DNA of 64,000 bases from Tubulanus polymorphus (Eukaryota > Animalia > Nemertea). Below, piece by piece: positions 10,695 through 63,075 of this stretch. The notes under the pieces are model-generated. The model made no database searches and was not told the DNA's origin. It saw nothing but the letters and a program-made list of their open reading frames with translations. The stretch is from positions 6,534,231 through 6,598,230 of the forward strand of contig NC_134033.1 in assembly GCF_964204645.1 (NCBI RefSeq). Reading direction: 5' to 3'. The translations under genes and the position numbers were made by a program. Positions within the stretch are counted from its first letter, which is position 1; each line of letters opens with the position of its first letter.

Positions 10695-10717
10695 TTATTT
10701 AGCAAAAAAATATGCAT

Positions 10718-10939
10718 TTATATAGGAGGAATATATTTTTGTTTTTCCAAATAATCAATAGTTAAATTAGATAAAGTAACTGCTAGCGTCAATTTTAAGA
10801 TATCATTTATATCAAATCTATCAACATTAACACTTCCCATTTTAAATACTTTTTTTAATACCATTGAATAACCAACAGTTCCAACTGATAGTAAGGCACC
10901 ATAATATAATCCAGTTATTATCCACTTATTATCACTCAT
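10718..10939 (-). CDS. 73-aa hydrophobic Polinton protein
   Basis: Differs from 49616-49837 at one residue (Y vs N at position 13). Confidence 0.85.
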   Translation of the reverse strand: MSDNKWIITGLYYGALLSVGTVGYSMVLKKVFKMGSVNVDRFDINDILKLTLAVTLSNLTIDYLEKQKYIPPI

Positions 10940-11595
10940 TTATTTATCAAAAAAATTACTATCTTCAAAATATTTAGTTATCTTATTTATGATTATTTCA
11001 ACATTTATAGTATTATTAGTTTTATGATTATCATATATTTTGGATAATATGTTTTTAATGTCATCGATAATTCCATCTTCACCAGAATTACAAGTTATAT
11101 CTTTAGTTGCTTCGAATGTTTTTGTAGGATCGCTTAAATTGCAATAAATATAAAAGTGTGTAAAAGGTATTAAGTTTGGTGTAGCATCAATATTTGTAAA
11201 AGATTTACCTGGAAGAATTCCTAACACAACAACCTTATCTTTATTTTGTTAGAACTCTCACTTTTCAAAAATCTGATATTAAACCCGGAATTATTACCTG
11301 ACTTGTGCCAGGCTTTTCTATTAATTTCTTGTGCCAATGTATCTAAATTATGTAACCCTGGTTTTAAATATATATAGGCCCATTCATTTTTATTTTTATT
11401 ACACATTAAAAAGGCTCTATGTTCAACAGTTTTATTCGATATATTGTAAAATGAGTTACATAAACTAATATTTACTAATTTTAAATCTACACAATTCTTA
11501 AATTCTCTATCTAATTGTACTAATAAATTATGTGATTTATAATTAGTAAGTCTTCTTGAATCAACAAATATTCTGTATTCTTTTAATTCTACCAT
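10940..11595 (-). pseudogene. Minor capsid (penton-like) remnant fused by deletion to the C-terminus of the next small gene
   Basis: MVELKEYRIFVDSR... and FTHFYIYCNL match 48485-49242; INVEIIINKITKYF..SNFFDK matches the end of 49319-49615. Confidence 0.85.
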
Positions 11596-11611
11596 TTATT
11601 TTACATATTTT

Positions 11612-33784: not shown

Positions 33785-34743
33785 TTATTTGACTGAATTT
33801 CTACAGCGTATTTTCGTACAGAAATGTTCACGTATTTCTCGTCCCAGTAGAAGATATATGAACAAATTTACCACATAGTTACACACATGAAAGTGCGTGA
33901 AAATATAATATAGAAGTGTTCGCTGTTCCGGTGAAATTGGTAAAAATGTAGCAATAGTGGCTGGAAGTGTAAATATTGCAAATGCGAGTGAAACTGTTAC
34001 AAGCATTACAAGTATTGTTGTACGTTTCGATTTTGTAGTTTTCCGATCAGACGATACCATTCTCGAACTTCTGAATAACTGAACGATTATAACAGAATTT
34101 GATATAATGATCGAAGATAGAGGCAGAACGTAATCGTGGACGACAGAATGGTCAAATATGTTATTTTGTCGAATAATACATAATAACATCCAAAAAACTG
34201 TTCTGAAAAAAGTATCCTCAAAGCAGGCGTGAGATATAGAATCATTGCGTTCATTGCAGTTATCACCAATGTAGTCACTCTAGCGAATCTAGGTGTACAT
34301 ACCAAACGAAATGTGAAACCAGCGCGCAGAAGCCAGCGATGGAAGAGCACAACCAGCGCGCGTTCTAGATATATTGCTACTATAAACCAAGAACTATTGC
34401 AGCCAGCAAGTGCCGTCACGAATCCGTATATGTGAGAGCTGATGAGTGAATTAAATACAGGACCAGTGTTTAGATGAAAGAGAACAAACTGTAAAACAGG
34501 CATCAGCGAAAAATTCAGACAGTACACAAAATCACTGAGAGACAAGACGATCAAATATATAGCGTAAGATAACCCGCGGAATCTACGACTTATCATTATC
34601 AGGAAAGTAGCTGAATTCCCGAAGGCGCCAACCAAGAACACGATAGGTAGAATGACCAATGACAGCGTACGATACATTCCAAATCTGTTCACCAAGGACA
34701 TAAGAACGTACGTTCGGCCCATATCATTCTGAGTAGAGTTCAT
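33785..34743 (-). pseudogene. Intronless class A (rhodopsin-like) peptide GPCR with a frameshift in TM5
   Basis: GN (TM1), LSLSD (TM2), ERALVV (TM3), FTLP (TM6), NYVVNLFIY (TM7); two overlapping ORFs join near 34130-34140. Confidence 0.85.
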
Positions 34744-41660: not shown

Positions 41661-41959
41661 TGACAAGAAACGTGCGGTAGATTTCGGAAAGACGACTTAG
41701 AAAAACATGTCGGCTCTTTGAATGGGGCTCAATTTTCGATGTTTACGGCCCGACAGTGCTTTTGTAACGATGATTCGTGAAAAAACACGCGGAGTAATTG
41801 TAGATCTTAGTGAGCTGAACGATATCATACGGATTGTATCGACAACAGCGGCAAGGTAACAAAGCCTTTGTACTTTTAGTGAAACTATAGTGTGACATAA
41901 AATAGTAATAAATATAGCTGCATAGCAGCGATAACGGGTTTCTGCCTAATAAAGAAGTT

Positions 41960-42048
41960 AGTAATTGGAAGATGGCGTTTTCAGGCCAGAGGTCGTGCGG
42001 TCGAGACACCACTCATCACCACAAGTAATTTTTTTTCCTAATAAATGG
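41960..42048 (+). repeat. Left TIR (89 bp), includes the pPolB start codon
   Basis: Exact reverse complement of 58708-58796. Confidence 0.97.
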
Positions 42049-45000
42049 GGGAGAATGAACACCAGCCAGAAAACAATAATGTTAATAAAAATCAATATTA
42101 TTGCCAATATTGTAAAAAATACATCGATAAATCCCAAAAATCACGACATGAAAAAACGTCAAATCATATAAAAAATGTAATAGATTTTGAAACTCCAGAA
42201 AATTCCAATGAAAGAAAAGAACGATTAGAAAATATGAATGTGGATGAAATAAAATGTGAAGTTTGTAATGAATTTATAGTAAAAAGGAATTATAATAGAC
42301 ATCTCGAATCACAAAAACACCGCCAAAATTTGAGTAATAATGTTTTAGGAAAAGATTATTTTGATGATAAACCTCAACAAGTAAAAGAATCAACTTCAAA
42401 AACTAAATCCATTTCAAATAAACCTTACATGGAAAATGTTAGAAATTATATTGATTCACTAGAAATAAAAGATACAATTGAAATCTTAGAAACATTACAT
42501 AGTAAAATTGGTCCTGCAGCTATTATATTTAGATTCTTTAAAGGTACAACAATAGAAGATTATAGTAAATTTAATGAAATAATAGAAACAATACTAGATT
42601 TGATAACAGATGTTGAATATCCAAAAATTAGTATCTCTGGGAAAGTAAGTTTTATAAAGTCAGAAGAAAAAATGGATTATAATATTCAAACACACTCTGA
42701 AGAAATAATTTCAAAAACACAAATAAAAGAGAAGTTAGAAAAAATATTAAATGAATTTAAACGTCATATTGAAGAAAGATATTTTGAGGGTTCTGGCTTA
42801 ACATTGAATGAAATTATATATTTAGATTTAAATGTTTATAATACAAAAAGAAATAAAACATCAAAAAGTAATAAAATGTTTTAAAATGATTCAAACTTTA
42901 TAACAGAAAAAGATATGAAAGCATCAAGTTATATCAAATTACCATTTATAACAAAAGCAGTAATAAATATTCAAAATGAAGATAATAAATGTTTTCTATG
43001 GTCAATTATTAGTTGCTTACATCCAACAGAAGAACATGCTTATAGAATAACAGATTACCGGAAATATGAAACATTATATAAAATTGATCAATATCCAGTA
43101 ACTATAAAAATGATTCCTAAAATAGAAAAAGTTAATAATTTAAAAATAAATGTATTCGAATTAATGCAATTACCAAAGACAAAAGGTGAAAATATTAAAG
43201 ATTATACATTGGAAGCTTTATATTTAACAGAATATTATGATGATGAAAATGTTATAGATTTGTTATATTACAAAAAAGATGAAAATGAACATTATATGTG
43301 GTTAAAACAAATTGATTTATTCTTTAGAACAGAAAGTGATTTTAACAGCCATAAAATTTATCTATGTAGAAAATGTTTATCTAAATTTAGAACTGAGAAT
43401 ACATTATTAAAACATAAAGAATTATGTGATAATAAAGATTTTTGTAAATTAATAATGCCAACAGAAAAAGATTATAAATTGAAATTTACTAATCATAAAT
43501 TTAAAAATATTGTTCCATTTGTAATTTATGGGGATTTTGAATCGTTGAATAAAGAATTAACTGATCAAGATAGAAAAGAAATATATAACAAAAAGCAATT
43601 ATTAAAATCAATGGATAAAGGAAGTGAATTAAATGAAGACATAATACAAGACCCACCAATTATAAATACAATTAAAAAAGTTCATCAAAGAGCTGCTGCT
43701 TATGGAATTTACATAAAATCAAATTATCCCGAATTATATGAAAGTCAATATATTTCTTTTAGAGGTGAAAATGTAGTTAATAATTTTTGTGATAAAATTA
43801 TTGAATTAGAAAGTGATTTTGCAAAATTATTAAACAAAAATAAAAGAATAGTTATGACAAAAGAAGATGAAATTGATTTTAATTATGCAACTCATTGTTG
43901 TTACTGTGAAAAACGTTTTTATTCATTTGATAAAAAAGTTAGAGATCATAATCATTTAAATTCAAATTATCGTGGAGCTGCTCATGAAGATTGTAATTTA
44001 CAAGCCAAAAAAGTAAATTTTGTCCCCATTATATTTCACAATTTATCGGGGTATGATACCCATCTATTTATAAAACAGCTATGTTATAAAATAGAAGAAA
44101 TTAATAATGAAATAGAAATATTAAATTCTTCAAATAGATTAAAAGATAACAAAGTATCAATTTACAAATTTAAAATACTTGCTAAAACATCTGAAAATTA
44201 TATTTCATTCCAATTTGGGTGTTTGAGATTTTTAGATTCGTATAGATTTTTAAGTAGTTCATTAGAAAATTTATCAAAAAGTTTAGTTGATAATGATTTT
44301 CAAATATTAAAACAACATTATCAAAATAATAATGATTTTAAATTAATGAGATATAAAGGAGCAATTCCATATTCTTTCTATAAAAATCATGATGATTTTA
44401 ATGTAACAGAATTATAAAAAGATCAATTTTATGATAAATTAAAAGAGGAGTATGTGAAAGATGAAGTGTTTAATAGAACATTAAATATTTGGAACCATTT
44501 TAAGATGAAAAATCATGGTGAATTAGTTGATTTATATTTAAAATCAGATGTTATGATATTGGCTGACATATTTGAAAAATTTAGAGAAGTTAATTTGAAT
44601 CATTTTAATGTTGATCCTTGTTATTGCTACTCTAGTCCTGGTTTAACCTGGCAATGTGGTTTAAAATATACAAATGTAGAATTAGATTTATTAAAAGAAC
44701 CAGATATGGTTTTATTATTTGAAAAATCAATTAGAGGTGGAATTAGTGGTGTTATGGGAGATAGGTATTTTAAAGCAAATGATGAATATAAATTATTATA
44801 TATTGACGCCAATAATTTATATGGTTGGGCAATGATGCAACCTCAACCATATAAAAATTTTATATTAACAGAAGTTGAAAATGGCGATAAAACTGATTGG
44901 GAAAACGCAATTGCGAGTTTAAAAGATGAAGCGCCAATTGGTTATTTCTTTGTAGTTGATTTAGAATATCCTGAAAATATAAAGTTTAAAACAAGAAACT

Positions 45001-47118
45001 TACCTTATTGCCCAGAACATTTAACTGTAGATGATAGTTATTTAAGTGAATACCAGAAGAAAATAAAACCGAAAGATCATGTTTTTACTGAAAAATTAAT
45101 ACTTACTCAAAATAATAAATACAATTATATTGTTCATTATAGAATGTTAAAATTTTATCTAAAGCAAGGAATGAAATTAAAGAAAGTACATAGATATATT
45201 GAATTTAATCAATCGAAGTGGTTAGAAAAATATATAGATTTCAATACTCAACAGAGAACAATATCAAAAACAGATTTTGAGAAGGATTTTTTTAAATTGA
45301 TGAACAATAGTTTTTATGGTAAAACATGTGAAAATATTAGAAATAGAAATGATATTGAATTAGTGAATAATTATGAACGATTGAGACACCTACAATCAAG
45401 TCCTAGACATTTAGGAAATAAAAGATTTGAAGATTATTTAACAGCAGTAAAATTAAAAAGAACGTCAATGAAATTTAATAAACCAATATTTATAGGTTCA
45501 ACAGTTTTAGAAATATCAAAATTATTAATGTATGATTTTTATTACAATGTATTACAACCATTGTTTGGGGAAAAACATATAGAAATTCTATACTTCGATT
45601 CTGTAACAGCTGACACCCCAATATTATTAAAATAGAATAACCAAATATTAATTAGAAGAATTTCAGAAATAATTCCTAATCAAAATAAATCTTATATTTC
45701 ATATGGTGAAAAAGAACTAATACAAATAAATGGTTTAATAGATGTTTGGACAAGAAATGGATGGAAAAAATTAAAGAATATTATTAGACATAAAACAAAT
45801 AAGAAAATCTATAGAGTTAGAACTAAATTAGGATTTGTAGATGTTACTGAAGACCACAGTTTAATTAAACGAAATGGTGATGAAATAAAACCAACTGATA
45901 TAAAAATTGGAGATGAATTATTACATAAAAGATTTTTCCCAAGAATGAATCATATGTCATTTGATGAAATAATTGATAATATTTATAATATAGAACCCGA
46001 AACATTGGAAGAAAAAGAATATTTTATCAAAGGATTTTTCATGGGTGATGGTTCAGCAGGTGTGTATAAATATGTTTGGGGTAATAAATATTGTTGGTAT
46101 TTATGCAATCAAGACTTAAAATTATTAGAAAGAATTAAGAAATTCTGTGAAGAAGTTTATTCACATAAAACATTTAGAATCATGGATGTTATGAAATCAT
46201 CCGCGGTTTATAGAATACTTATAAATAATCCTAAAGATTTTGCTATAAAATATAATGATGAATTCTATATTCATGCAATAGTGAAAAGTAATACTTCAAC
46301 TAAAGAAAAAATAGTACCAGATTATATTTTAAATTCAGAATATAATCTTAGAAAATGGTTCTTCATTGGGTTCTACGCAGCCGATGGTACTAAAAAATTT
46401 ATAAAGGATAAAACGATAACCTTTGCACAGAAAGGAAAATGTGCAATAAGTGGGTTAAATGTGTTATGCAGTTCATTAGGATTTAATATGAATATAGAAT
46501 TAATTAAATCTAAACCAAATTGTTTTAATTTAAGGCATGTAGAAAAAGAATTAACAGAAGAAGTTAAAGATTTATTTGAAATATATAACCCAACTGACTA
46601 TGTTTATGATTTATCAACAGATGATGGAACATTCAATTCTGGGTTCCCATTAATCCAAAAAAATACTGACAGTTACATACTAAAAATCAAGACAAATGAT
46701 ATAACAAAAGACTTAAAAACATTGAAACATTATTTCGACTTTGGCAATTACCCCAAAGATCATGAATTGTTTAGTAATGATAATAAAAAGATTCCTGGGA
46801 AGTTTAAAGATGAATTAGGAGGTGATGAAATGATTGAATTTGTTGGGATAAGAAGTAAAATGTATAGTTATAGAACAAAAGATCATGAAGCTAAAAAGTT
46901 AAAGAATAACAAAACATGTGGTTGATAAACATATAGAATTTCAAGATTATATAAAGTGTTTATATAAATCAATTGTAATGAAACATAAAATGAATTGTTT
47001 AAGATCAGTAGATCACGAGATGTACATTAATGAAGTTGAAAAAACTAGTTTAAATCCATTTGATGATAAAAGGCATATTTTAGATGATGGTATAAAAACA
47101 TTACCTTATGGCCATTAA
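42045..47118 (+). pseudogene. polB: Protein-primed family B DNA polymerase (Zn fingers, vOTU-like, exonuclease with Endo VII-like insert, polymerase) with intein; 3 in-frame stops and 1 frameshift
   Basis: ORFs at 42045, 42915, 44454 and 45945 share one frame, split by single stops (42882, 44415, 45633); frameshift near 46903. Motifs: DNKCFLWS..HY, YGDFES, FHNLSGYD, RFLDS, YLKSDV, YIDANNLYG, KLMNNSFYGK, YFD|TDS, GKFKDE, SKMY. Confidence 0.95.
45600..46664 (+). mobile_element. Intein with LAGLIDADG homing endonuclease (355 codons) in pPolB motif C
   Basis: Splits YFD|TDS. Block A SVTADTPILL, block B VDVTEDHSL, LAGLIDADG helices FIKGFFMGDG and FFIGFYAADG, blocks F/G YVYDLST..GTF...LIQKN, then Thr at +1; one TAG at 45633. 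Confidence 0.95.
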
Positions 47119-48416
47119 AACATAAAATCAATATCATCAAACTCGAAATCACTATTGTCTTCTTCATTTTCATTTAATTGTTCAGGTTCTTCTTCCATTC
47201 CATTTTTCTCATTTAAATAAAGTTCTATCTTGTTCCACATTTCATCTCGCTCTCTTTGTTTCTTTTTGTTTGTTAATTCATCAAATGGAATTATAATATC
47301 TAGGTTTAAATAATTTACAATCTTATTTAAAAAGAATTCATAATTTATTGAATCTGTTATTCTATTTTCCAAATGATACATTAATATTTGTTTGAATATT
47401 TTTTTTATATTTTTCATATCTTCTTCTGTTAATTTAGGTTTTTCATAATAATCGTTAAATAATAAATATAAATACATTTTCTTTTCTTTTGTGTTAAATG
47501 TTGGTGGAATAATTGTTTTTATAATATCTTTTTTAGTTATTTCACCATTTTTATTTTCTATTATTTTCATTTTTTCAAGCCATTGCATATATTCTGGTGT
47601 ATGATCTTCTATAGAAAATATTTTAAAAATTTCATCAAGATAATTTAATTTTGGATCTATAAGAAAATTTCTAGTTTTTTCTTCATCCCATAAATTCTTT
47701 TGCCATCCACAATCAACACAAAATAACACAGTACCTTCTTGTCTTAAGGTCGCATAACTACATTGTGGACATTTTCGTTTATAATTTATTGGTAATAGAT
47801 CTTCATTAAGCTCTTGGTATTTTCTTACGTTTTCTTTATGTTTTATTGTTCTATTATGTAGATTTGAATTACTTGTTGTAATAATCAATTTACAATATTT
47901 ACAATAATATGTTTTTCTTGTTAATTCATTATATTGTTTTTCTAACTTTTCAACTGTTTCTTCATTATCTGGTAACGTTTTCTCATATTTTATTTTTTCT
48001 AATAAATTATTTTTTCTTTCATTGAATTCAGTTTCAAATTTATTAGAAATTTTATCTATATGTGCTTTACGAAATTGATGATTCTCCCAATCTTCTTTAT
48101 TATCAGGGATGTATTTCATTTGACAAGGCTCGCAGAAATGATTTTTTATTTTATCCTTATCATAAAATAAGGAAGGTCTTTTCCAAATAACTTCAGGTTC
48201 AACTTCAGCAGAATTACTATCAACATTAGCCATTGCGCCATTAATTCTACACTTCTCTGAATGTTTTTTAACATAATTTCTTGAGAATAATTGATTACAT
48301 TTTGGACAGTTTATTTTAGGGGGTTTATAATTTTCATTATGTTTTTTCATATGTCGAGCCTTATTACTTTTTCTTAGAAGTTCACCACAAATTTCACATG
48401 CTATCTTCTCTTCCAT
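47115..48416 (-). CDS. Zn-finger protein with C-terminal VLTF3 (poxvirus A2)-like late transcription factor domain
   Basis: Four N-terminal CxxC..H fingers; Zn ribbon CPQC-x13-CVDCG; C-terminal INYEFFLNKIVNYL...KKKQRERDEMWNKI resembles the VLTF3 family end. Recognised by eye only. Confidence 0.68.
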   Translation of the reverse strand: MEEKIACEICGELLRKSNKARHMKKHNENYKPPKINCPKCNQLFSRNYVKKHSEKCRINGAMANVDSNSAEVEPEVIWKRPSLFYDKDKIKNHFCEPCQMKYIPDNKEDWENHQFRKAHIDKISNKFETEFNERKNNLLEKIKYEKTLPDNEETVEKLEKQYNELTRKTYYCKYCKLIITTSNSNLHNRTIKHKENVRKYQELNEDLLPINYKRKCPQCSYATLRQEGTVLFCVDCGWQKNLWDEEKTRNFLIDPKLNYLDEIFKIFSIEDHTPEYMQWLEKMKIIENKNGEITKKDIIKTIIPPTFNTKEKKMYLYLLFNDYYEKPKLTEEDMKNIKKIFKQILMYHLENRITDSINYEFFLNKIVNYLNLDIIIPFDELTNKKKQRERDEMWNKIELYLNEKNGMEEEPEQLNENEEDNSDFEFDDIDFMF

Positions 48417-48484
48417 TTATTTAGGAAAAATTTTATTAAAATTAATTTTTAGTGATGAGTGTAATTTTTTTATGTTATAAATAA

Positions 48485-49242
48485 ATGGTGGAATTAAAAG
48501 AATATAGAATATATGTTGATTCTAGAAAACTTACAAATTATAAATCACATAATTTACTAGTACAATTAGATAGAGAATTTAAGAATTGTGTAGATTTAAA
48601 ATTAGTAAATATAAGTTTATGTAATTCTTTTTACAATGTATCGGATAAAACTCTTGAACATAGAGTCTTTTTAATTCATATTAGAAATATAAATGAATGG
48701 TTTCATCTATTTTTAAAACCAGGGTTATATAATTTAGAAACATTAGCCCAAGAAATTAATCGGAGAGCACGATTAAAACTTGGAAAAGATGATAAATTTT
48801 TAATTAAATTTAGTAAAAGTGATAGTTCTGATAAAATTAAAATAAAGTTAGATGATGAAAACAAACATGCATTTATGGTAAAAAAACCTATAGCTAAATT
48901 GCTAGGAATTGAACCAGATGTTGTTACAGGAAACGTAGACGGTAATTCAAATATAATACCTTTTACACACTTTTATATTTATTGCAATTTAATCGATCCT
49001 ACAAAAACATTTGAAGCTACTAAAGATAAAACTTGTAATTCTAGTATACTAAATATTTTACCAATAAAAATGTTAAACAATTTGGAACTCAAATAAATTA
49101 TAATTTAACAGAATGTGATTTTAAACCTTGCATTCCTAAATTTAATAATTTTAGATTAGAAATTAGAAATCATAATGGATACTTAATTGATTTAAATAAC
49201 TTTCCTGTGATATATGAATTAGTTATAAGATGTAAAGAGTAA
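48485..49242 (+). pseudogene. Minor capsid protein (penton-like), 1-nt frameshift near 49070
   Basis: IYVDSR start, FYIYCNLID, ILPI; shifted frame continues FRLEIRNHNGYLIDLNNFPVIYELVI to a stop at 49240-49242. Confidence 0.78.
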
Positions 49243-49258
49243 TTTTTTTATTATATAA

Positions 49259-49615
49259 ATAAATATAATTGTTGGACCGAGTATATGTTTTGGATTTGAT
49301 TTTAAACGTGAGAAAGAAATGAAATTTAACATGAATGATGTAATTACACATATAAAAAATGTTGTATTTTCTAATGAAACAACATTTGAGTATGAAACAA
49401 CAATAGATAAAGAAACTTTAAATGTAGAAAAGATTACTAATTTAATTAGAGAATCTTTAAGATTTTATGAATTAGATGAAGATTTTATAATCGATGATAT
49501 TAAAAAAATAATAATTGAAATATATACAAATGAAACTAGTAATGAAATAAATGTTGAAATAATCATAAATAAGATAACTAAATATTTTGATGATAGTAAT
49601 TTTTTTGATAAATAA
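49259..49615 (+). CDS. Small Polinton protein; probable original start mutated (TAAATG to TAAATA), downstream ATG at 49319
   Basis: Open frame from ATA at 49259 behind a T-run/TAAAT motif; C-terminus conserved in copy C. Confidence 0.6.
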   Translation: MNIIVGPSICFGFDFKREKEMKFNMNDVITHIKNVVFSNETTFEYETTIDKETLNVEKITNLIRESLRFYELDEDFIIDDIKKIIIEIYTNETSNEINVEIIINKITKYFDDSNFFDK

Positions 49616-49837
49616 ATGAGCGATAATAAGTGGATAATAACTGGATTATATAATGGCGCATTACTATCAGTTGGAACTGTTGGTTATTCAATGGTATTAA
49701 AAAAAGTATTCAAAATGGGAAGTGTTAATGTTGACAGATTTGATATCAATGATATTTTGAAATTAACATTAGCAGTTACTTTATCTAATTTAACTATTGA
49801 TTATTTGGAAAAACAAAAATATATTCCTCCCATATAA
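49616..49837 (+). CDS. 73-aa hydrophobic protein
   Basis: TAAATG start; two hydrophobic segments; conserved in copy C. Confidence 0.8.
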   Translation: MSDNKWIITGLYNGALLSVGTVGYSMVLKKVFKMGSVNVDRFDINDILKLTLAVTLSNLTIDYLEKQKYIPPI

Positions 49838-49861
49838 ATGCATAATTTTTTTGTTAAATAA

Positions 49862-50284
49862 ATGGCTTCTGCAATTATAACTATTATAGGATCAGCAATT
49901 GTTAACGCTTTAGCATTTACTGGTGGTGGTTATTTATTTAAACATATTGATAAAAATAGTTCATTAGGAGAACAAAGAAGACATAACTTAGCGTTAGAGA
50001 AATACAATAAAGCTGCAGAAGAATATAGAGAAAAGAGACAAAACTATATGGATTACATCAATAAAGAATTATATGATCAGAAGATTTCACATAGAGATTT
50101 TCAATCAGTTGATGATGCAATGAGTTTATATAACGCAGTAACCAATAAAGAAAAATTACATCTATACAAACCTAAATTATCAGATTATTATACCCCAAGT
50201 AAAGAACAACAGAAATATGAAATAATATGGATTTTAGGTGGAACTGTTATTGTTATATTTGTTGCTTATAAGTTTACTAATTAG
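49862..50284 (+). CDS. 140-aa protein with hydrophobic N- and C-termini
   Basis: TAAATG start; conserved in copy C. Confidence 0.82.
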   Translation: MASAIITIIGSAIVNALAFTGGGYLFKHIDKNSSLGEQRRHNLALEKYNKAAEEYREKRQNYMDYINKELYDQKISHRDFQSVDDAMSLYNAVTNKEKLHLYKPKLSDYYTPSKEQQKYEIIWILGGTVIVIFVAYKFTN

Positions 50285-50303
50285 TAATTTTTAATCTAAA
50301 TAA

Positions 50304-50738
50304 ATGGAAGATAAAGTTGATAGTATTGATATTATTCCTCATGATATAAATAAAACTAAATTAAAAACATATTTAGAAAAACAAATATTAGAATTTGAAA
50401 GTGACTTAAAGATAAAAAAGAAAAAATATTTAAAAAGTAAAATTATATATTATCTTATTATTAGTGGTTCGGTTACAATTAGTTCTGTAATAACATTTCT
50501 AGCAATATTCAGTCCATTAACACCTTTAGCTATATCAATTGGTGTATTAGGATTAAGTTCAAGTGTTTTAACCGGTATAAGTTCAAAATTAAATATAAAA
50601 AGTAATAAAGAAAAAATCAAAACTAATATAAAAGAAATTAATAAATTAAAGAACACACTAGATTATATAATAAGTTTAAATGGTCATATAACAGTTGAAG
50701 AACAAGATAAATTATTAAAAGAATTAATAAATTATTAA
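50304..50738 (+). CDS. 144-aa protein with two predicted TM helices flanked by coiled coils
   Basis: TAAATG start; hydrophobic stretch IIYYLIISG...LTGISS. Confidence 0.78.
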   Translation: MEDKVDSIDIIPHDINKTKLKTYLEKQILEFESDLKIKKKKYLKSKIIYYLIISGSVTISSVITFLAIFSPLTPLAISIGVLGLSSSVLTGISSKLNIKSNKEKIKTNIKEINKLKNTLDYIISLNGHITVEEQDKLLKELINY

Positions 50739-50754
50739 TTTTTTAATTATATAA

Positions 50755-52170
50755 ATGGTAGATAGTTTTCCAAAAGCTTTCCAATATAATAAATCAATTA
50801 AATATAATATTCCAGCAATAGATTTTAATAAAGATATTACATATAGAAATGAAGTTTTAGATTCATTAACTAATTTAGAAATTTATGTTACTGAAACTAA
50901 TAATTTTAATGCAAAGATGGAAAATATATTTCATGTATATTTAATTAATTTTAAAAAATTGAAAGATGAAAAACAATGGTTATTAAAATCTAATATGAAG
51001 TATTGGCAGAACCAATTAAATTTTGCTGTTTATTGTGCAACAACAGGATGTGGAATTAGTTGGAATGATCATTTGAATAATTCTAAATATAAACTAATTC
51101 AAAGTTTATTTAGATTTCATACATACTTTCAAATCAGAATAATATTAAATGAATTAGAGTGCGCTTTACCAGGATCTAGGTATTTTAAAGAATTAGATAA
51201 TAATATTAATTTATCAAAGTTTTATAAAATTTGTAATGAATTTAATATAGATATAAATAATTCTGATTTTAGAATAAAAATTGGAACAATAAGATCACTT
51301 CCTTGCCCTAGAAAGATTGCAGAATATTGTGCACTTCCCATACCATCTAATAGTTTTTATAATATCTATAATAAAAAATTAGGTTATGGTAAAATAGAAA
51401 CAAAGGATTTAGAAACATTAAATTTCAATAAATTACCGAAATTTTATGATAATTTAAAACAAGAAAACAATAATGGTTGGGTTTATTTTATTTTAGAAAA
51501 TAGTGAAGGTTTTACAAAATCAGGTATAGAAAGAATAAATCAATCTATTAGAACTTATTTAATATGTATTCTAGGATCACAAGTTGAAACAAGATCCCCG
51601 ATAATTGGAAATTTGAATACATCATTCGATACACAAAAACAGTTTAAAGTTTTATTTGAAGATTCAATTCATAATGATAAAAATAGATCGATTCCAGAAA
51701 ACGTTATAAGATATCAAAATTATTTAGATAAATCTCATGTAAGACTAAATTATTGTATAGGCCCTAATCTATTAATTATTTCTAATGATTTAGTATTAAA
51801 GATGGGAAATATAATTGGTTATAATAATCTAATTAAAACTGCAACAATAAATAATTCATTTGGGTTAAATGATATAAATAAAAAGATTATTACTGCTCCA
51901 AAATTAATAGAAGGTGAAAAAAATAAAAAACACATTCAATCAACAGAAACTAAAACTAAGAATATTAAATTGGTTAATGATTCCAAAATAAAAGATTACA
52001 ATACATCAGAAAATGGTGCCGTACGGCACCCACACGGTGATAATAGAACTGATATTATTCAACATGATATAATTAAACAATATGATGATAATAAATCCCA
52101 TGAAAATACTAAATTAGCTATAACTTGTATAGGAATTGTAATCGGAGGAATATTATATTTTAAATTTTAA
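50755..52170 (+). CDS. 471-aa Polinton protein with C-terminal membrane anchor, function unknown
   Basis: Intact ORF, TAAATG start, C-terminal LAITCIGIVIGGILYF; conserved in copy C. Confidence 0.85.
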   Translation: MVDSFPKAFQYNKSIKYNIPAIDFNKDITYRNEVLDSLTNLEIYVTETNNFNAKMENIFHVYLINFKKLKDEKQWLLKSNMKYWQNQLNFAVYCATTGCGISWNDHLNNSKYKLIQSLFRFHTYFQIRIILNELECALPGSRYFKELDNNINLSKFYKICNEFNIDINNSDFRIKIGTIRSLPCPRKIAEYCALPIPSNSFYNIYNKKLGYGKIETKDLETLNFNKLPKFYDNLKQENNNGWVYFILENSEGFTKSGIERINQSIRTYLICILGSQVETRSPIIGNLNTSFDTQKQFKVLFEDSIHNDKNRSIPENVIRYQNYLDKSHVRLNYCIGPNLLIISNDLVLKMGNIIGYNNLIKTATINNSFGLNDINKKIITAPKLIEGEKNKKHIQSTETKTKNIKLVNDSKIKDYNTSENGAVRHPHGDNRTDIIQHDIIKQYDDNKSHENTKLAITCIGIVIGGILYFKF

Positions 52171-52186
52171 TTTTTTTATTATGTAA

Positions 52187-53647
52187 ATGGATGTAGAAGG
52201 TGGAGAAGATTATGAAATGGGAGAAATGGGAAATGATAATGAAGGATATATTGATGATGATTATAATGATGCAGAAACTAATATTGATAATGATGATGAA
52301 TCAGCATATAATTCTAATTTAGCAGATAGTGGTTCTAAAGGTCAATCAACAGATGAATTTGATAGAAGAACTAGATCGAGAATAAATCCTGAAAATGAAA
52401 ATCCAGATTTAGTAAAACAAAATTTAGAATATAATGAATATATTTATAATTTCAAACCTATATTTGAAAAATCTGGATATAATATCAATGCTAGAGGCGC
52501 CAGACTTTTAGTACAAGAATTAAAATCTTTAGATGGTGAATATTATTATCATTTGAAAGATGATTATTATATTGATATCTCTTATAAAAAACAAAACAAA
52601 ATATTAGCAGAATCAACTTTGCTTAAGTTAGACCTATCTAGAATTAAAAGAATAAGAAATAGTAATGAACCAGAAGATGTAACACAAGAAGAAATTATTA
52701 AAAATGAAAGAGTATTTAAACAAAGAATTAATGAATTATTTGAAACAATCGATAATAATTTAGAACCAGAAACAAGTTCTCAACAGAATATAACTTCCAA
52801 AACTAGTAAACTTAAATCAAATAAAGTTCCAATTGAAAAACTTTTACCGAATGGGTTACTTGATGCAACAGATCAAGAATTAGAAGATTTAGATATATTT
52901 TCTGATAAAGCAATTAGAGAAATTATTAGTATAAGACTTGCATCTGATAAAATTGCGCATGATAAAAGTATAAGAGATTTTAAGATTAGAACTTTAGAAA
53001 AAGAATTAACTGATAAAAATAAAGAAATAGAACAATTAAAATTAGATAGAGATAATAAAGTAATTGAAGAAATTGAATTTAAAAAAAGAAATGCATATTT
53101 AGAAAAAGAAATTGATGATTTAGAATATAACATAGAATTACAAAAAGAAGAAATTAAATCATTATTTAAATCATATGATTATAATATTGATAGATTAAAA
53201 GATGTTTTTAAAAGATATCTAATAAAACCAGATTCTAGAATATCATTAAAAGATAGAATAAAATTGTTATTTAAATTAGAAGGAATAACAATTCTTTCAA
53301 TTCTAACAGGTGTAACTATGTTATTTACAACAATAGGTTTAGCTATATCAAATGCTTTGAAATCTACTCCTACTCCCAATAAACCAGATAAACCCCCGAA
53401 TGATAATAATTCTATACAAGATAAAGTTAAAGATGGTTTAAAGAAATTAGCAAAATATTTATGGGAACTATCAAAGAAATCTGCTGCAGCACTACCAGGA
53501 GTTATTGCATCAATTGTTGGTTTTGTTTTAAAATCTGCAGGAAACATTATTAACTTTGCTGCTGAACATATTATTTTATTTTTAATTACAGTTGTAAGTG
53601 CTATTATTTTTGGGTTAGTAAATATGATATCAAAAAATATCAAGTAA
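52187..53647 (+). CDS. 486-aa acidic/coiled-coil protein with C-terminal hydrophobic helices
   Basis: Intact ORF, TAAATG start; C-terminal third conserved in copy C. Confidence 0.85.
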   Translation: MDVEGGEDYEMGEMGNDNEGYIDDDYNDAETNIDNDDESAYNSNLADSGSKGQSTDEFDRRTRSRINPENENPDLVKQNLEYNEYIYNFKPIFEKSGYNINARGARLLVQELKSLDGEYYYHLKDDYYIDISYKKQNKILAESTLLKLDLSRIKRIRNSNEPEDVTQEEIIKNERVFKQRINELFETIDNNLEPETSSQQNITSKTSKLKSNKVPIEKLLPNGLLDATDQELEDLDIFSDKAIREIISIRLASDKIAHDKSIRDFKIRTLEKELTDKNKEIEQLKLDRDNKVIEEIEFKKRNAYLEKEIDDLEYNIELQKEEIKSLFKSYDYNIDRLKDVFKRYLIKPDSRISLKDRIKLLFKLEGITILSILTGVTMLFTTIGLAISNALKSTPTPNKPDKPPNDNNSIQDKVKDGLKKLAKYLWELSKKSAAALPGVIASIVGFVLKSAGNIINFAAEHIILFLITVVSAIIFGLVNMISKNIK

Positions 53648-53688
53648 ACCATGATTAAAAATAAATAATTAATTTTTTTGTTAAATAA

Positions 53689-54936
53689 ATGAGTGGGAGT
53701 TATATAAGTCCTTCTAAGATTTCTAGAATATCTAATGCTATTAAAGCAGAAAGATTACATCATATAATTACTCATAACCCTTCAAATATTAATCCCGATG
53801 AAACTTTATACGTTAGAATTCCGAGATTAACACAAAATACTTTTTATGTTCCAAATAGTATTTATTTATCAGCTGATATAAAAGTAATCGGTAATAATAA
53901 TAATTATGTTGTTGATAATGTTGGAAGATATTTGATTAAAAAGTTAACAATAAAGATTGGTCCAGAAACAGTTTTCTCATTAGATGATTATAATTTATTT
54001 ATGCATTATAAAGATTTATGGTTAACTAAAGAAAATAGAAATAATATGATATTTCAAGGAATCCAATCAGAAAACCAAAATAAATTAAGATCAGAAGCTA
54101 ATAGCGCAATATTAACAAATGATGTAGATAAATTGATAAAAAGTATATATGGAAGCAAATATAAAATTCCATTAGACTTTGAATTGATAAATAATAATGC
54201 ACCTTTATATAAATACGCAATTCAAGAAGATATTATATTTGAGATAACATTTGCTCCTGTAAATGAAATTGTAATATCTAGCGTTAATAAAGATATGAGT
54301 TATAAATTATCGAATATATGTTTAGAATATGATACAGTAACTGATGAAAATATTGCTAGAACAATTCAAACTCAATACAATCAAGGATTTTCATTATTAT
54401 ATGATTATATTGATAAATTTAAAACTGTAACTATTAATGCAAATGATGAAATAATTAATGAGAATATTAACTTCCCTAGAAGATCTATTAAAGGTATATT
54501 AATATTTCTTACCATTGGAACGTATACTAATGGCGCAATAAATGTTGATAATTATTATAATCCTGAAATAACAAAAGTAGAAATAACTATCGAAGGTATA
54601 GCGAATAAAATATTTTGTCAAGGAATGAGAATGATAGATCAATGGGTAGAAATTAAAAAACATTTTATGAATGAAAAAGTAAAATCATTTGAAAATTGTA
54701 ACATTAATCAAATTGATTATTATACCGGTAATAAATATGCATTATGGTTAGATTTTAGAACAACTGAAGATAATTCATTACATGGTTCTGGGAAAAAATT
54801 ACAAAATACAAAAGATGGGATCCAATTATTTATGACAAAGAAAAAGGGAATCAAAAATTTTAAAATGCATATTTATATTATATCTGACGCACAATTAAAT
54901 ATTGTAAATTCACAATTAGATATTATTCAATATTAG
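53689..54936 (+). CDS. Major capsid protein (putative double jelly-roll)
   Basis: 415-aa intact ORF beside integrase and ATPase; beta-strand pattern (LYVRIPRL, YKIPLDF, IIFEITFAP, LSNICLEYD, LWLDFR); size and position fit a Polinton MCP. Confidence 0.8.
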   Translation: MSGSYISPSKISRISNAIKAERLHHIITHNPSNINPDETLYVRIPRLTQNTFYVPNSIYLSADIKVIGNNNNYVVDNVGRYLIKKLTIKIGPETVFSLDDYNLFMHYKDLWLTKENRNNMIFQGIQSENQNKLRSEANSAILTNDVDKLIKSIYGSKYKIPLDFELINNNAPLYKYAIQEDIIFEITFAPVNEIVISSVNKDMSYKLSNICLEYDTVTDENIARTIQTQYNQGFSLLYDYIDKFKTVTINANDEIINENINFPRRSIKGILIFLTIGTYTNGAINVDNYYNPEITKVEITIEGIANKIFCQGMRMIDQWVEIKKHFMNEKVKSFENCNINQIDYYTGNKYALWLDFRTTEDNSLHGSGKKLQNTKDGIQLFMTKKKGIKNFKMHIYIISDAQLNIVNSQLDIIQY

Positions 54937-54966
54937 AAATATAAAGTTAAAATTAAGGATATATAA

Positions 54967-56094
54967 ATGAGTGGTAAAAAAACTCCTAATACTAAAGAAC
55001 AATATTTAAGAAATTTATATTACAACCCTGAGAGTTCGGTTGCTTATTCTTCTACTAAAAATATATGGCGTAAAGTAAAACAAGATAAATTAGATAAGAT
55101 AATCTCACAAAATTTAGTTAAATATAAAGATATAAATGAATTTATGTTAGAACAACCAACATATACAACACATAAAAAAATTGTTAGAAAATATAAAACT
55201 CGTAAAACTATGGTAAGTTATGTAGATCAACAGTGGCAAGGAGATTTAATTGATATGAAAAATGTTAAGAAAGATAATGATGATTATTGGTGGTTATTGA
55301 ATATAATTGATATTTTTAGTCGTTATGTATGGAGTTTCCCACTTTATAGAAAAGATGCTGCACAAACATCACATGTTTTAAGAAAATTTCTTTCGGATGA
55401 TAAACTAAAACCAGAAAAAATACAATTTGATGATGGAAAAGAGTTTGATAATTCACTTGTTCATGAACTCTTAGATAATCATAATATTAAATATTTTTCA
55501 ACAAAATCAGATAAAAAAGCAGCAGTTGTTGAACGATTTAATAGAACATTAAGAACAAGAATGTGGAAATATTTTACAGCAAATAATACTTTTAAATGGA
55601 TTGTTGTTTTACCAAAATTGATAGAAGGATATAATAATTCTTATCATTCTTCTATTGGAATGAAACCTATTGATGCTAGAAAACCTGAAAATGCTGAAAT
55701 TGTTTGGAATAATTTATATGGAGCATTTCTTGTAGATGATTTTGGTGAACCTAAATTTAAAGTTGGTCAAAATGTTAGAATTTCTAAGTATAAAAAGATA
55801 TTTGATAAAGGATACGATCGAAATTTTACTAGAGAAATATATAAAATAAAAAAGGTAATAACAACAAAACCATATGTCTATAAATTAGAAGATTTAGATG
55901 GTGAAGAAGTTGATGGCTACTTTTATGAAGAAGAATTAAGTTTAACTACTGAAAATCTAAAACAAGAATATAAAATTGAAAAAGTATTAAAAACAAAAAC
56001 TGTTAAAAGAAAAAAATATTCTTTAGTAAAATGGGTTGGATGGCCAGATAAATTCAATGAATGGATATTATCAAGTAAAATTAAAAATATATAA
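54967..56094 (+). CDS. Retroviral-like (rve) DDE integrase with C-terminal chromodomain
   Basis: WQGDLIDM, IDIFSRY, IQFDDGKEF, VERFNRT, YNNSYHSSIGMKP; chromodomain YKIEKVL...LVKWVGWPDKFNEWI. Confidence 0.95.
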   Translation: MSGKKTPNTKEQYLRNLYYNPESSVAYSSTKNIWRKVKQDKLDKIISQNLVKYKDINEFMLEQPTYTTHKKIVRKYKTRKTMVSYVDQQWQGDLIDMKNVKKDNDDYWWLLNIIDIFSRYVWSFPLYRKDAAQTSHVLRKFLSDDKLKPEKIQFDDGKEFDNSLVHELLDNHNIKYFSTKSDKKAAVVERFNRTLRTRMWKYFTANNTFKWIVVLPKLIEGYNNSYHSSIGMKPIDARKPENAEIVWNNLYGAFLVDDFGEPKFKVGQNVRISKYKKIFDKGYDRNFTREIYKIKKVITTKPYVYKLEDLDGEEVDGYFYEEELSLTTENLKQEYKIEKVLKTKTVKRKKYSLVKWVGWPDKFNEWILSSKIKNI

Positions 56095-56703
56095 ATGAAT
56101 AAGGAATTATTCATATTTGAGCCTCATAATATGTTAATTTCTGGTGTAACAAATTGTGGAAAAACTTATTTTATATTACATTTATTAGAAACTGTTTATG
56201 AAAACTATTTTGATAATATAGTATTATTTTGTCCAACATATGAATTTAATCAAACTTATGATAAAAATATTACTAGGAATAATAAATTTATTATATTAGA
56301 TCCTAAAACAGTAAAAGAAAATTTAGATAATTGTATAAAAATAGCAATTGATATTTATAAAGGATCAAATACATTATTTATCATAGATGATTGTGCTAAT
56401 CTACATGATTCAAAAGTTAGAGAAAGTGAGTTATGTTATTTAGCTTTTTCTGGTAGACATTTTGGGATAACAACTTGGGTTTTAAATCAAAAATATAATT
56501 CAATTGTTAAAGATTTTAGAGAAAACATTAGATTTCTAGTTTTATTCTACAATAAAGATAGAAAATCGATGAAAAATGCACTTGAGGAAAATGATATTAT
56601 TCCACATGATTTACATAATGAATATATGGATAAGTTGAAAAATATTAAAAGATCAAAATTACTATTTAGATTACAACACCCATTTAAATATGAATTTATT
56701 TAA
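56095..56703 (+). CDS. A32/FtsK-type DNA packaging ATPase
   Basis: Walker A GVTNCGKT, Walker B FIIDD, GRH motif, Q sensor (VLNQ), FREN. Confidence 0.93.
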   Translation: MNKELFIFEPHNMLISGVTNCGKTYFILHLLETVYENYFDNIVLFCPTYEFNQTYDKNITRNNKFIILDPKTVKENLDNCIKIAIDIYKGSNTLFIIDDCANLHDSKVRESELCYLAFSGRHFGITTWVLNQKYNSIVKDFRENIRFLVLFYNKDRKSMKNALEENDIIPHDLHNEYMDKLKNIKRSKLLFRLQHPFKYEFI

Positions 56704-57062
56704 ATTCAATTAGTTTGTTAATCTAGTTGAATTCTAGTTATTGGTAGTTGTAACAAAAATCAAATAGATTTAACAATATTTTAACTAGCTTGTTAATCTA
56801 TTTTAATTCTAGTTGAATTCTAGTTGTTAGTAGTTGAAACAAAAATCAACTAGATTTAACAAGAAATAAACAAAAACAACAATATTTCAACTAGCTTGTT
56901 AATCTAGTTACATTCTAGTTACATTCTAATTGAATTCTAGTTGTTAGTAGTTGAAACAAAAATCAACTAGATTTAACAAGAAATAAACAAAAACAACAAT
57001 ATTTCAACTAACTTGTTAATCTAGTTGAATTCTAGTTACATTATAGTTAAATTCTAGTTGCA
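56704..57062. repeat. Non-coding repeat block inside the Polinton (CTAGTT/AACTAG motifs, 117-bp duplication)
   Basis: Duplicated unit at 56818 and 56935 plus a degenerate upstream copy. Confidence 0.8.
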
Positions 57063-57093
57063 ACATCACACAATTAATTTTTTTGTTATATAA

Positions 57094-57680
57094 ATGGTAG
57101 GTGAAAAGAAAATAAAATCTAAAAATGGTGATGTTCCAATTGAAAAAACTTTAGATGATTTAGGAATAACAGAAACAAAATTAATTCCAGATGATGGTGC
57201 TTTAAATAATGTTACAACAAATAATAATTATGAATATTATCTTTATTGCAAACATCAATTAGAAATATTAATAGCATCTGGAAAATGTAAAAATTTTGTT
57301 AGTAAAAATTTAACTTATAATGAATTAGACACAATGAAATCAGATGAAATTATTAGATTATTTAAGATTTATGAAGCCGCGAGAACAGCTAGAATTAATG
57401 ACGCGATATCAGAAAATGTAGTAAAAGGTTATAGTAAATTATGTAATTATATACTACCAATTGAAGATGAAAATAGATTATATTCCGATTTAAAAAATGA
57501 TTATTTATGACTGAATTAAATAAATGGATTGGATATTTATCATTTCAATTAGGTGGATTTATGACATTATTATCAACTGGAGTTATAACATTTTCAAATA
57601 TTGAAAGTAAAAATATTTCTATAATAAATGAGCGAGGTGAAAGAAGTGAAGAAAAAACCGAGAACTCAGAAACAAATTGA
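57094..57680 (+). pseudogene. Polinton protein with hydrophobic C-terminal region, frameshift near 57505
   Basis: ORF 57094-57510 appears to continue in a shifted frame as TELNKWIGYLSFQLGGFMTLLSTGVITFSNI to TGA at 57678-57680. Confidence 0.62.
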
Positions 57681-57981
57681 ATGGTCTCGGCAATTAGGAA
57701 TTAAATCACAAGAATATAAAAAAGCTGTAAAAGAAAAAATAAGTAATAAAAATGTTAATAAAAATGGTGAAAATATTGTTATTTCTACTCCTTCTGATAG
57801 TAGAATATTTGATAAATATTTATATTTTACAGTTGGATTTGTAATTGTATTCATTTTGATTGGGTGTAATTGGTATAAGAAATCAAATAAAATTCATGAT
57901 ATTAGTAATTCTGAACCAACTGCTATCAAAAATGAAAGTACTTCTGAAATTCCAAAATTGACAATAAAAAAAATGGATTAA
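57628..57981 (+). CDS. 117-aa basic protein with a single TM helix
   Basis: TAAATG start; Lys-rich N-terminus; YLYFTVGFVIVFILIGC segment. Confidence 0.75.
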   Translation: MSEVKEVKKKPRTQKQIEWSRQLGIKSQEYKKAVKEKISNKNVNKNGENIVISTPSDSRIFDKYLYFTVGFVIVFILIGCNWYKKSNKIHDISNSEPTAIKNESTSEIPKLTIKKMD

Positions 57982-58018
57982 TATTTTAGAAAAAAAGCAA
58001 AAAAAATAATTGAATATC

Positions 58019-58711
58019 TCACTGCGGAGCAATTAAATTGTCTAGATAAGTCATTTCGGATTCCTCAACGTATCGTTCATTATTTGGATTATTGTTCCAT
58101 TGATCAATAAATTTCTTTGCCTTTGTTAACTGTTCTGAATATAACTGTAAATTTAGTTTATTAGATTTAATTATATTTTCTTTCTTTTCTAAAGGCCTTA
58201 AATTTCTCCAGTTCCAGATTTTCTTCTTATCATATTCATCATTCATATCAAATTTAGAAATCGGCAACACGTGATCAATATGAAAGTATTCACCATAATT
58301 ATCTATATTCATTTTATCATCGAATTGATATATTATCCATGATTTTAAGAATTCATCTGAACAACCCAATAGATTAGATAGTGTTTCTGAATGTGTTTCT
58401 TTGTTGAATAATTGTGTTAATCTAGACCGTAAACATTGTTTCAATCTAAAATTAAGATCTGTTTGATATCTTTCTCTCATATATTTTGTCATATAATCAT
58501 TATAAGATTCTCTATTATCTTCTCGGTATTGTTTGGTATATAGTTTAAAACAAGTTTTACAGCAATTTTGAAAACCATCTTTGCTAATCTTACGCTTACT
58601 AAATTCTGTAAATGATTTATCTAATTCACATTTAGAACACTTCTTGTAGTATATGTTTATAACACCAATGTTATTTGTAATATTAACAATTTGTGGTTGT
58701 TCTGATTCCAT
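58019..58711 (-). CDS. HNH endonuclease with N-terminal CxxC...CxxC Zn ribbon
   Basis: CSKC...CKTC; HIDHVLP...NLRPL...N..KSNK; start codon lies inside the right TIR. Confidence 0.85.
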   Translation of the reverse strand: MESEQPQIVNITNNIGVINIYYKKCSKCELDKSFTEFSKRKISKDGFQNCCKTCFKLYTKQYREDNRESYNDYMTKYMRERYQTDLNFRLKQCLRSRLTQLFNKETHSETLSNLLGCSDEFLKSWIIYQFDDKMNIDNYGEYFHIDHVLPISKFDMNDEYDKKKIWNWRNLRPLEKKENIIKSNKLNLQLYSEQLTKAKKFIDQWNNNPNNERYVEESEMTYLDNLIAPQ

Positions 58712-58796
58712 TTATTAGGAAAAAAAATTACTTGTGGTGATGAGTGGTGTCTCGACCGCACGACCTCTGGCCTGAAAACGCCATCTTCCAATTACT
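58708..58796 (-). repeat. Right TIR (89 bp), includes the HNH gene start codon
   Basis: Exact reverse complement of 41960-42048. Confidence 0.97.
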
Positions 58797-58877
58797 GAAG
58801 TTTCCAGTACCTAGGCGCAATTTTGAGGCGGTCCCTCGAGGTCCCCATTGTTGCGATAATTTGCGCTCATTTTTAAA

Positions 58878-62863: not shown

Positions 62864-63075
62864 TTAACATTACATAAGAAATATTTAATTACAAATATCG
62901 AAACATTTACTAATAGATATGGTAACAAATTAGTTATTCACCTAGAATATGAAGGATTAAAAGGTAATAAATATACATTCAGAACATATTTACCAGATAG
63001 ATTTCATAGATAATCTACTGAAGATCTAGAAGAAGTGTGTTCTGGTGATTTCTATTTCATATACCAATAAGGGTA
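62864..63075 (+). pseudogene. Polinton copy B, right part: 3' half of the small ORF
   Basis: LTLHKKYLITNIETFTNRYGNKLVIHLEYEGLKG...YLPDRFHR*STEDLEEVCSGDFYFIY continues 37967-38061 in frame. Confidence 0.8.

Follow-up and report, generated by a model that had tools for sequence, protein, structure and literature searches.

A zinc-finger-fused VLTF3/A2-like gene and a poxvirus-like late-promoter signature in a Polinton of the nemertean Tubulanus polymorphus

Homologues of the poxvirus factor VLTF3 (A2) have been described in several Polinton-type elements. In stony coral polintoviruses a VLTF3 homologue occurs as an accessory gene, which was read as the result of exchange with large DNA viruses (PMC11131425), and homologues are also present in the MELD viruses (PMC8502044) and in the Zephyr PLVs (polinton-like viruses; 10.64898/2026.06.19.733378). 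The occurrence of VLTF3 in polintoviruses is already in print. The stony-coral study cites Krupovic and Koonin (2016) for it. Promoter sharing with helpers is known from PLVs and virophages (10.1101/2022.07.28.501842), and PLVs occur in entomopoxvirus occlusion bodies (PMC11296320). Whether animal Polintons (Mavericks) act autonomously, as nuclear viruses, or depend on large DNA viruses as their satellites is an open question. We analyzed a stretch of 64,000 nucleotides (nt) from the nemertean Tubulanus polymorphus (contig NC_134033.1, positions 6,534,231 to 6,598,230; hereafter the window), which contains a Polinton of 16,837 nt (window positions 41960-58796) that harbours a VLTF3/A2-like gene fused to zinc fingers.

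This gene resembles those of the known polintoviruses and PLVs in being an accessory VLTF3 gene of a Polinton-type element; it differs in that neither a finger fusion nor a poxvirus affinity nor a promoter analysis is mentioned in the covered parts of the respective reports, which do not extend to supplements, and in that one of the described proteins was called mimivirus-like. With mavirus, Sputnik and Gezel-14T, which rely on helper promoters (10.1101/2022.07.28.501842), the element shares its small size, its integration, the lack of an RNA polymerase and gene starts that match the promoter of a large virus; those systems, however, have protist hosts and mimivirus-type helpers. The entomopoxvirus-associated PLVs have a protease, and the two of them with PolB lack a detectable integrase (PMC11296320), whereas the present element has an integrase of the rve family and its own A2-like factor; in the main text of that report the words 'promoter', 'VLTF' and 'motif' do not occur. 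Within the literature covered, which lacked most subscription papers and all supplements, we found no published description of a VLTF3 fused to fingers, nor of animal Polintons with a poxvirus-type VLTF3 or with late promoters of the poxvirus kind, and nothing specific came from PMC11464507. Annotations in supplements or subscription papers may anticipate part of the findings. A different gene, KilA, has passed from egoviruses to protist polintons (10.1101/2024.03.23.586382).

The fused gene occupies positions 47115..48416 on the minus strand and, as the initial annotation had stated, is an intact open reading frame (ORF), here of 433 amino acids (aa), that diverges from the cluster of probable structural genes: a gap of 68 nt separates it from the gene at 48485, which runs in the opposite direction. 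With the polymerase region on its other side it is arranged tail-to-tail. The N-terminal region (residues 1-207; 47796..48416, minus strand) holds four C2H2/C2HC-like fingers starting at residues 7, 37, 95 and 172, of which fingers 3 and 4 are of the U1/JAZ type (finger 4 is a zf-U1 of the matrin/JAZ type). Next come a C4 zinc ribbon (C216, C219, C233 and C236; 47709..47771, minus strand), with the pattern CPQC-x13-CVDC at residues 216-236, and a helical VLTF3 domain of approximately residues 250-402 (47211..47669, minus strand), for which the Pfam, Foldseek and structure-alignment results point to one predicted cyclin/TFIIB-like fold. The VLTF3/A2 region as a whole spans residues 208-402; the helical part ends near residue 402 and is followed by an acidic tail. 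The order of ribbon and helical region had been read from the letters beforehand, and we find it as described, the stretch INYEFFLNKIVNYL...QRERDEMWNKIELYL lying at residues 357-401.

The gene product is a member of the VLTF3/A2 family with a predicted zinc ribbon and cyclin-like fold. Pox_VLTF3 (PF04947) scored 27.7, 27.9 and 30.6 bits (cut-off 25) on three trimmed pieces of the protein and was absent from the Pfam scan of the full-length 433-aa protein; the profile match covers positions 5-199 of 225. In an embedding search of the Atlas, 27 of the 30 matches carried Pox_VLTF3 (best match 0.95); nothing above 0.76 was found with the whole protein. An exhaustive HMMER search of 1.84 billion representative proteins yielded four matches. 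Word-seeded homologue searches were empty (none of 5148 candidates with the full protein, none of 176 with its C-terminal part) because the family is too divergent. No relative was found in viral contigs scanned with the fused protein, the capsid protein, a capsid alignment and the VLTF3 of the related locus L021; a sequence search of the PDB returned only weak zinc-finger matches, and the VLTF3 domain had no match in PHROGs. The four ribbon cysteines are invariant in an alignment that includes two canonical VLTF3s. The ribbon itself had no PF08792 match on the trimmed pieces, though its cysteines align and the model shows ribbon strands. Poxvirus A2/VLTF-3 (PF04947 plus PF08792) shares with the fused protein an apparent C4 ribbon followed by a helical domain, a Pfam score above the cut-off and the top Foldseek matches; the differences are the approximately 200 extra N-terminal residues with four fingers, the acidic tail, an identity of 14-27%, a ribbon that scores nothing against PF08792, and a host element of 17 kb without RNA polymerase and without recognisable A1 or G8.

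Structure prediction gave the same family assignment. A single-sequence model was poor (predicted local distance difference test, pLDDT, 50; nothing under E 0.09 in Foldseek), and an AlphaFold model from a 7-row alignment (pLDDT 80, predicted template-modelling score 0.67) was used instead. The first-ranking Foldseek match in BFVD was the cowpox VLTF3 (E 9.4e-7, probability 1.00, template-modelling score 0.63), the third and fourth were entomopoxvirus VLTF3s and the second bore no name (ranks 1-4 reaching to E 6.1e-5); the VLTF3s of giant viruses ranked lower. Among the 500 counted matches, six had E-values of at most 0.001, and four of these were named VLTF3. Against the PDB, Foldseek gave no significant match (best E 0.2). 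VIA-align placed cyclins, TFIIB and Rb at the top of the solved structures, with Z-scores of 5-6.7 over about 90 residues. The TFIIB chains, at Z 5.7-6.2, were tied with the cyclins; the titles of entries 1ais and 5wh1 mention TFIIB, and 5iy6_M and 7o4i_M are chains that we take to be TFIIB. Such middling Z-scores fit one predicted cyclin-like fold behind the ribbon and prove no function. The likeness to TFIIB and other cyclin-fold proteins would be a zinc ribbon followed by a cyclin-like helical fold; the difference is that the fused protein has one repeat, with Z-scores that are middling and shared with cyclins and Rb, and no significant Foldseek match in the PDB. TFIIB proper was ruled out, as it has two tandem cyclin repeats: the helical part of about 155 residues aligns to one repeat of about 90 residues, and the protein is therefore not classed as TFIIB. 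The VLTF3-like helical domain proposed in the initial annotation thus held up in both the profile and the structure comparisons that it had named, which returned VLTF3 and TFIIB/cyclin-like similarity.

The fusion is not peculiar to this copy. In the homologues P0121 (697 aa, 43% identity) and P0122 (446 aa, 31% identity) all four fingers recur together with the ribbon and the helical domain. P0121 forms one cluster with P0125 and P0126, and P0122 represents a second, distant cluster; the four-finger fusion is conserved across these two clusters at 31-43% identity. P0123 joins a finger to the C-terminal half of the domain only, and P0124, with an A2L ribbon, is the only canonical VLTF3 among the four HMMER matches. 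The related element L001, whose capsid identity is 75%, ends in a truncated ORF that is 98.6% identical to the start of P0126, which places the fusion in another Polinton. Adjoining this finger-VLTF3 gene of L001 is a deoxynucleoside kinase gene (L001:10340-10981; Pfam dNK, E 2e-31). The ORF L001:125-469 was considered as a further VLTF3 piece and ruled out by the lack of a Pfam match and a poor alignment.

The second line of evidence is a promoter signature that extends over the whole element. The initial annotation had referred to TAAATG promoters of the element, and we quantified these at 14 gene starts that were chosen mechanically as the first ATG: TAAATG is present at 13 of them, compared to 34 of the 643 other ATGs of the element (Fisher p = 3e-15). 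The combination of TAAATG with an upstream T-run occurs at 10 of the 14 starts and at 8 of the 643 other ATGs. The tenth base upstream of TAAAT is a T at 11 starts, and the base one further upstream at 13. The VLTF3 gene itself has a T-run plus TAAATG start (48414..48440, minus strand); the gene at 48485 has this signal too, and the two lie back to back. In vaccinia virus, late promoters consist of TAAAT plus a G over the start codon and a conserved T ten bases upstream among Ts (PMC11980589), and the starts of the element match this large-virus layout as described there. TAAAT is also associated with poly(A) leaders generated by slippage (PMC7163114). In the vaccinia intermediate complex TAAA is read directly by the polymerase core (PMC12917281); by analogy, the TAAA of the element may be read by a polymerase core and not by a factor.

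The signature was followed through 43 capsid-linked loci, of which 25 had assessable starts (several of them near-duplicates) and 18 had none. Close relatives (15 loci with a capsid identity of at least 51% and a GC content of 0.20-0.44) have TAAATG at 37 of 43 starts, L001 alone at 9 of 9. Distant relatives (10 loci, GC 0.29-0.49, three of them near 30%) have it at none of 25 starts, with TATA-like words in its place. The TAAATG signal is clade-specific, not compositional. We also considered whether a depletion of T-runs/T5NT in the coding strands reflects avoidance of viral terminators, and rejected this idea, as A-runs are depleted too.

Given an A2/VLTF3-type factor and late-type starts in one element, we hold it about evenly balanced that the factor, with its four fingers, is the element's late initiation factor, and that it would load the T-run/TAAATG promoters with the RNA polymerase supplied by a co-infecting pox-like virus. 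A Pfam scan of the 17 element ORFs of at least 80 aa gave no match to an RNA polymerase subunit or a capping enzyme, so that a TAAA-reading polymerase would have to come from the helper. It would fire the late-type promoters of the element, that of the VLTF3 gene included. Since its start is of the late type, like those of the other genes, a first round would depend on late factors of the helper; afterwards, the element's factor would amplify the element genes and compete with those of the helper. The promoter layout, the poxvirus-type scores of the domain and the direct reading of TAAA by the poxvirus core lend indirect support to the proposal of the initial annotation that the protein may redirect the helper polymerase or compete for it. 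The extra fingers, common to the element's DNA polymerase, may tether the factor to element nucleic acid and thereby confer a preference for the element.

The same combination of ribbon, fold and start motif could also belong to a nuclear factor that works with the host RNA polymerase II and the host TATA-binding protein as a TFIIB-like promoter recogniser, independently of any helper, TAAATG then being an inherited motif or one of translation context. We regard this as unlikely, though it has precedents: the mriyaviruses (PMC11253617) and ariadnaviruses (10.64898/2026.08.29.747986), which are thought to replicate in the nucleus, retain VLTF3 without an RNA polymerase, and the factor may therefore work with RNA polymerase II. 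The resemblance of the fold to a TFIIB cyclin repeat (Z 5.7-6.2) and the integration of the element in chromosomal DNA, as marked by a target-site duplication, point the same way. However, TAAAT overlaps the start codon, which leaves no 5' untranslated region; a TATA-like stretch so near to the ATG would place the RNA polymerase II start inside the coding sequence. The T-run spacing equals that of poxvirus late promoters, and the nuclear cases of VLTF3 are not poxvirus-type. AATAAA is not depleted in the coding strands (58 in 10.9 kb, 50 in shuffles), a test that is uninformative since the groups are poorly separated and the value is low in the poxvirus-type locus L044 too.

Which kind of VLTF3 was fused bears on the proposed recruitment of a pox-like polymerase. 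Reference sets were picked by motif: the pox-type motif gave 38 loci, whose contigs measure 128-360 kb and were taken as poxviruses, and the RKNFL motif gave 120 loci. The domain scored 53.8 bits on a pox-type profile of 19 non-redundant sequences, 33.5 bits with 18 sequences after removal of the entomopox-like row, and 15.2 and 11.9 bits on RKNFL-type profiles. As controls, the best of 500 shuffles reached 7.9 bits, and the best of 20 RKNFL-type proteins 24.7 bits on the pox profile. Profile-profile E-values were 1e-15 and 5e-10. P0124 is 63% identical to the VLTF3 of L044. From the neighbours of its VLTF3 gene (MSV199/T5orf172 genes, NAD ligase and polymerase beta) we take L044 to be entomopoxvirus-like. 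For the first tree the sets were thinned to 19 of the 38 pox rows and 20 of the 76 usable RKNFL rows, of which 8 and 11 entered the approximately unbiased (AU) tests; P0123, which is partial and had the longest branch, was dropped from the second tree. To judge from these sequence comparisons, the fused domain likely has poxvirus affinity, which the profile scores favour and towards which the trees lean without firm support. Some GC-richer relatives have short stand-alone VLTF3-like genes of 165-169 aa (L017:6543-7052, L018:4427-4936 and L021:5082-5579). None of the three has a ribbon or fingers; those of L017 and L021, at Pfam E-values of 6e-4 and 4e-5 (below the cut-off), lean weakly to the RKNFL type.

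The initial annotation had likened the N-terminal fingers to those of the polymerase, and this comparison was borne out. Finger 4 is 40% identical to the first finger of the polymerase N-terminal ORF at 42045 (tblastn, E 0.003), and none of 2000 shuffles with fixed Cys and His reached its score; the same holds for finger 1 against polymerase finger 2 (0/2000). In Pfam, zf-U1 is above the cut-off in both proteins. Fingers of a U1/BED-like kind, resembling those in the fused protein, are also present in other ORFs of relatives (L012:2461-3687, L013:1748-3043 and L003:2287-3120), and the finger therefore looks like a mobile module in this clade.

Raw reads gave a view of further copies of the gene. 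In a DNA run of the same species (X6) the depth was about 160-330 over the gene (47090-48500) compared to about 30 at two flank sites, which indicates that the fused gene is present in several copies. The reads cover it without a gap, and no insertion or deletion in the ORF is seen at 25% of the reads or more. Differences to the reads of other copies were found at 64 places; for 40 of these, the 36 listed differences comprise 7 synonymous and 29 non-synonymous ones, and none of those listed makes a stop or alters a Cys or His. The ratio of non-synonymous to synonymous polymorphism (pN/pS) is 1.24 overall and 0.99 in the VLTF3 domain; a ratio near 1 gives no sign of present purifying selection among the copies, while the conservation across distant homologues indicates long past selection.

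Neutral-looking differences of this kind would also suit a re-purposed fold or a passive cargo, that is, a protein which binds double-stranded RNA or element DNA through its matrin/JAZ-type fingers, for replication, packaging or damping of innate sensing, and has no part in initiation. U1/JAZ-type fingers such as fingers 3 and 4 belong to families known for RNA binding, similar fingers occur both in the polymerase and in ORFs of relatives that are otherwise unrelated, and P0123 combines a finger with half of the domain. We nonetheless give this explanation little credence, as the full A2 layout of ribbon plus helical domain is intact and models well, and co-occurs with the late-promoter signature in both elements with a visible context (this element and L001).

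The divergence of the domain raises another explanation, namely that the protein is a decoy which would reduce the helper's late transcription by occupying its polymerase or its late-factor partners, as a host defence or in competition, while the helper's A2 transcribes the element genes. The late-type start of the gene itself implies that helper factors suffice to fire these promoters, and the retention of only 19 of 45 pox-conserved columns, next to the extra N-terminal residues and the acidic tail, leaves room for a decoy or another use. A simple decoy would need less than ribbon, helical domain and four fingers retained together over 31-43% identity, and competing and activating are not mutually exclusive; we consider a pure decoy distinctly improbable.

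Several results weigh against the recruitment of a helper polymerase by a late initiation factor. No helper virus turned up in any search made. The polymerase would be cytoplasmic and the integrated element is nuclear, so that the two must somehow come together, and the mriyaviruses and ariadnaviruses keep VLTF3 without an RNA polymerase, in a cycle thought to be nuclear. Since L017, L018 and L021, all of the distant group, carry a short finger-less VLTF3-like gene without TAAATG starts, VLTF3 and TAAATG are not obligately coupled. The differences among the copies of the fused gene look neutral. In the trees the fused family stands beside the pox sequences at 90/83 (unstarred) with long branches meeting, and neither an RKNFL-type grouping (p = 0.32) nor one common polinton origin (p = 0.16) is rejected by the AU tests. 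The fused protein keeps 19 of 45 pox-conserved columns, compared to 20 of 63 for the RKNFL set, and the motif-picked reference sets are without asfarvirus and egovirus VLTF3s.

A broader and more tentative proposal, which we put forward as possible rather than probable, is that this animal Polinton clade consists of integrating satellites (virophages) of a still unknown invertebrate pox-like virus. The helper's late promoter would then have been copied at every gene, and the captured A2 with its fingers would be an element-specific adaptor that diverts the helper polymerase from the genes of the helper; the sister clade, which has TATA-like starts and would have captured its VLTF3 separately, would be adapted to another helper. 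If true, the start motif and the VLTF3 type of a Polinton would predict its helper. The pox late-promoter signature and the pox-type factor give a sharp test of satellite against autonomous status and point to an unrecognised pox-like virus in the host, and the finger fusion would exemplify a general initiation factor made genome-specific. In practice, VLTF3 matches in animal assemblies can stem from Polintons and not from giant viruses.

The boundaries of the element are sharp. Terminal inverted repeats (TIRs) of 89 nt, 100% identical, lie at 41960..42048 (plus strand) and 58708..58796 (minus strand), and a 6-bp target-site duplication flanks them at 41954-41959 and 58797-58802; together with the rve integrase and an A32 ATPase, these features identify the element as a Polinton/Maverick. 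The N-terminal polymerase ORF has its T-run/TAAATG start within the left TIR. The gene of the probable protein-primed family B DNA polymerase, with two N-terminal fingers (42045..47118, plus strand), is broken: stops interrupt the frame at 42882, 44415 and 45633, and near 46.9 kb there is what looks like a frameshift; this copy of the element is therefore probably inactive. The two-finger ORF at 42045 is in frame with the downstream polymerase pieces, which are homologous to ORFs of the related loci L006 and L027. The family B motifs are legible in the sequence; Pfam DNA_pol_B_2 matched one piece only, below the cut-off (E 2e-4), and the polymerase region had no match in another Pfam scan of the element ORFs, in PHROGs or in a further scan. 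An intein with a LAGLIDADG endonuclease (45600..46664, plus strand; 355 codons) splits the YxD/TDS motif of the polymerase; LAGLIDADG_3 is above the Pfam cut-off and Intein_splicing below it (E 1.7e-6). The homologous polymerase stretches of L006 and L027 are uninterrupted and have no intein. Homing-endonuclease insertions in polinton polymerases are already on record (PMC11161782).

To the right of the fused gene, a conserved cluster of probable structural genes (48485, 49319, 49616, 49862, 50304, 50755 and 52187; 48485..53647, plus strand) starts with TAAATG throughout except at 49319. For this gene (49319-49615), the only one without TAAATG at the first ATG, the homologue in L001 is longer, so that the first ATG is probably not the true start. 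The ORF at 49616-49837, of 73 codons and under the length cut-off, has a full T-run/TAAATG start. The product of 53689..54936 (plus strand) is the probable major capsid protein, possibly of the double jelly-roll type; it has a weak Pfam match (Capsid_N, E 0.07) and 925 homologues among 3741 candidates. It is followed on the same strand by a retroviral-type integrase with a chromodomain (54967..56094; Pfam rve, E 1.7e-10), an A32-type packaging ATPase (56095..56703; Pfam Pox_A32, E 8e-13) and two function-unassigned genes (57094..57981), which are conserved in relatives and both have TAAATG starts. From 49862 to 56703 the genes are tightly packed, with gaps of 0-41 nt. An endonuclease VII/HNH-type gene (58019..58711, minus strand; PHROG 1035, E 2e-18) starts from the right TIR. 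An adenovirus-type cysteine protease had no match among the 17 ORFs, from which a divergent or broken gene could escape. About 2.5 copies of a 117-nt tandem repeat lie at 56705-57060, where the right half has its one long intergenic gap.

Elsewhere in the window, the structural cluster occurs once more at 5773-11601, degraded and in inverted orientation (76-89% identity) and without any trace of a VLTF3 gene; another short piece related to the element lies at about 62935-63067. The host flanks contain a receptor gene of the rhodopsin family that is broken (Pfam 7tm_1, E 5e-8), a reverse-transcriptase remnant and long tandem arrays of 34-nt and 31-nt units; these flank features (33785-34743, 59026-60595, 687-3121 and 14551-18682) are consistent with an animal chromosome.

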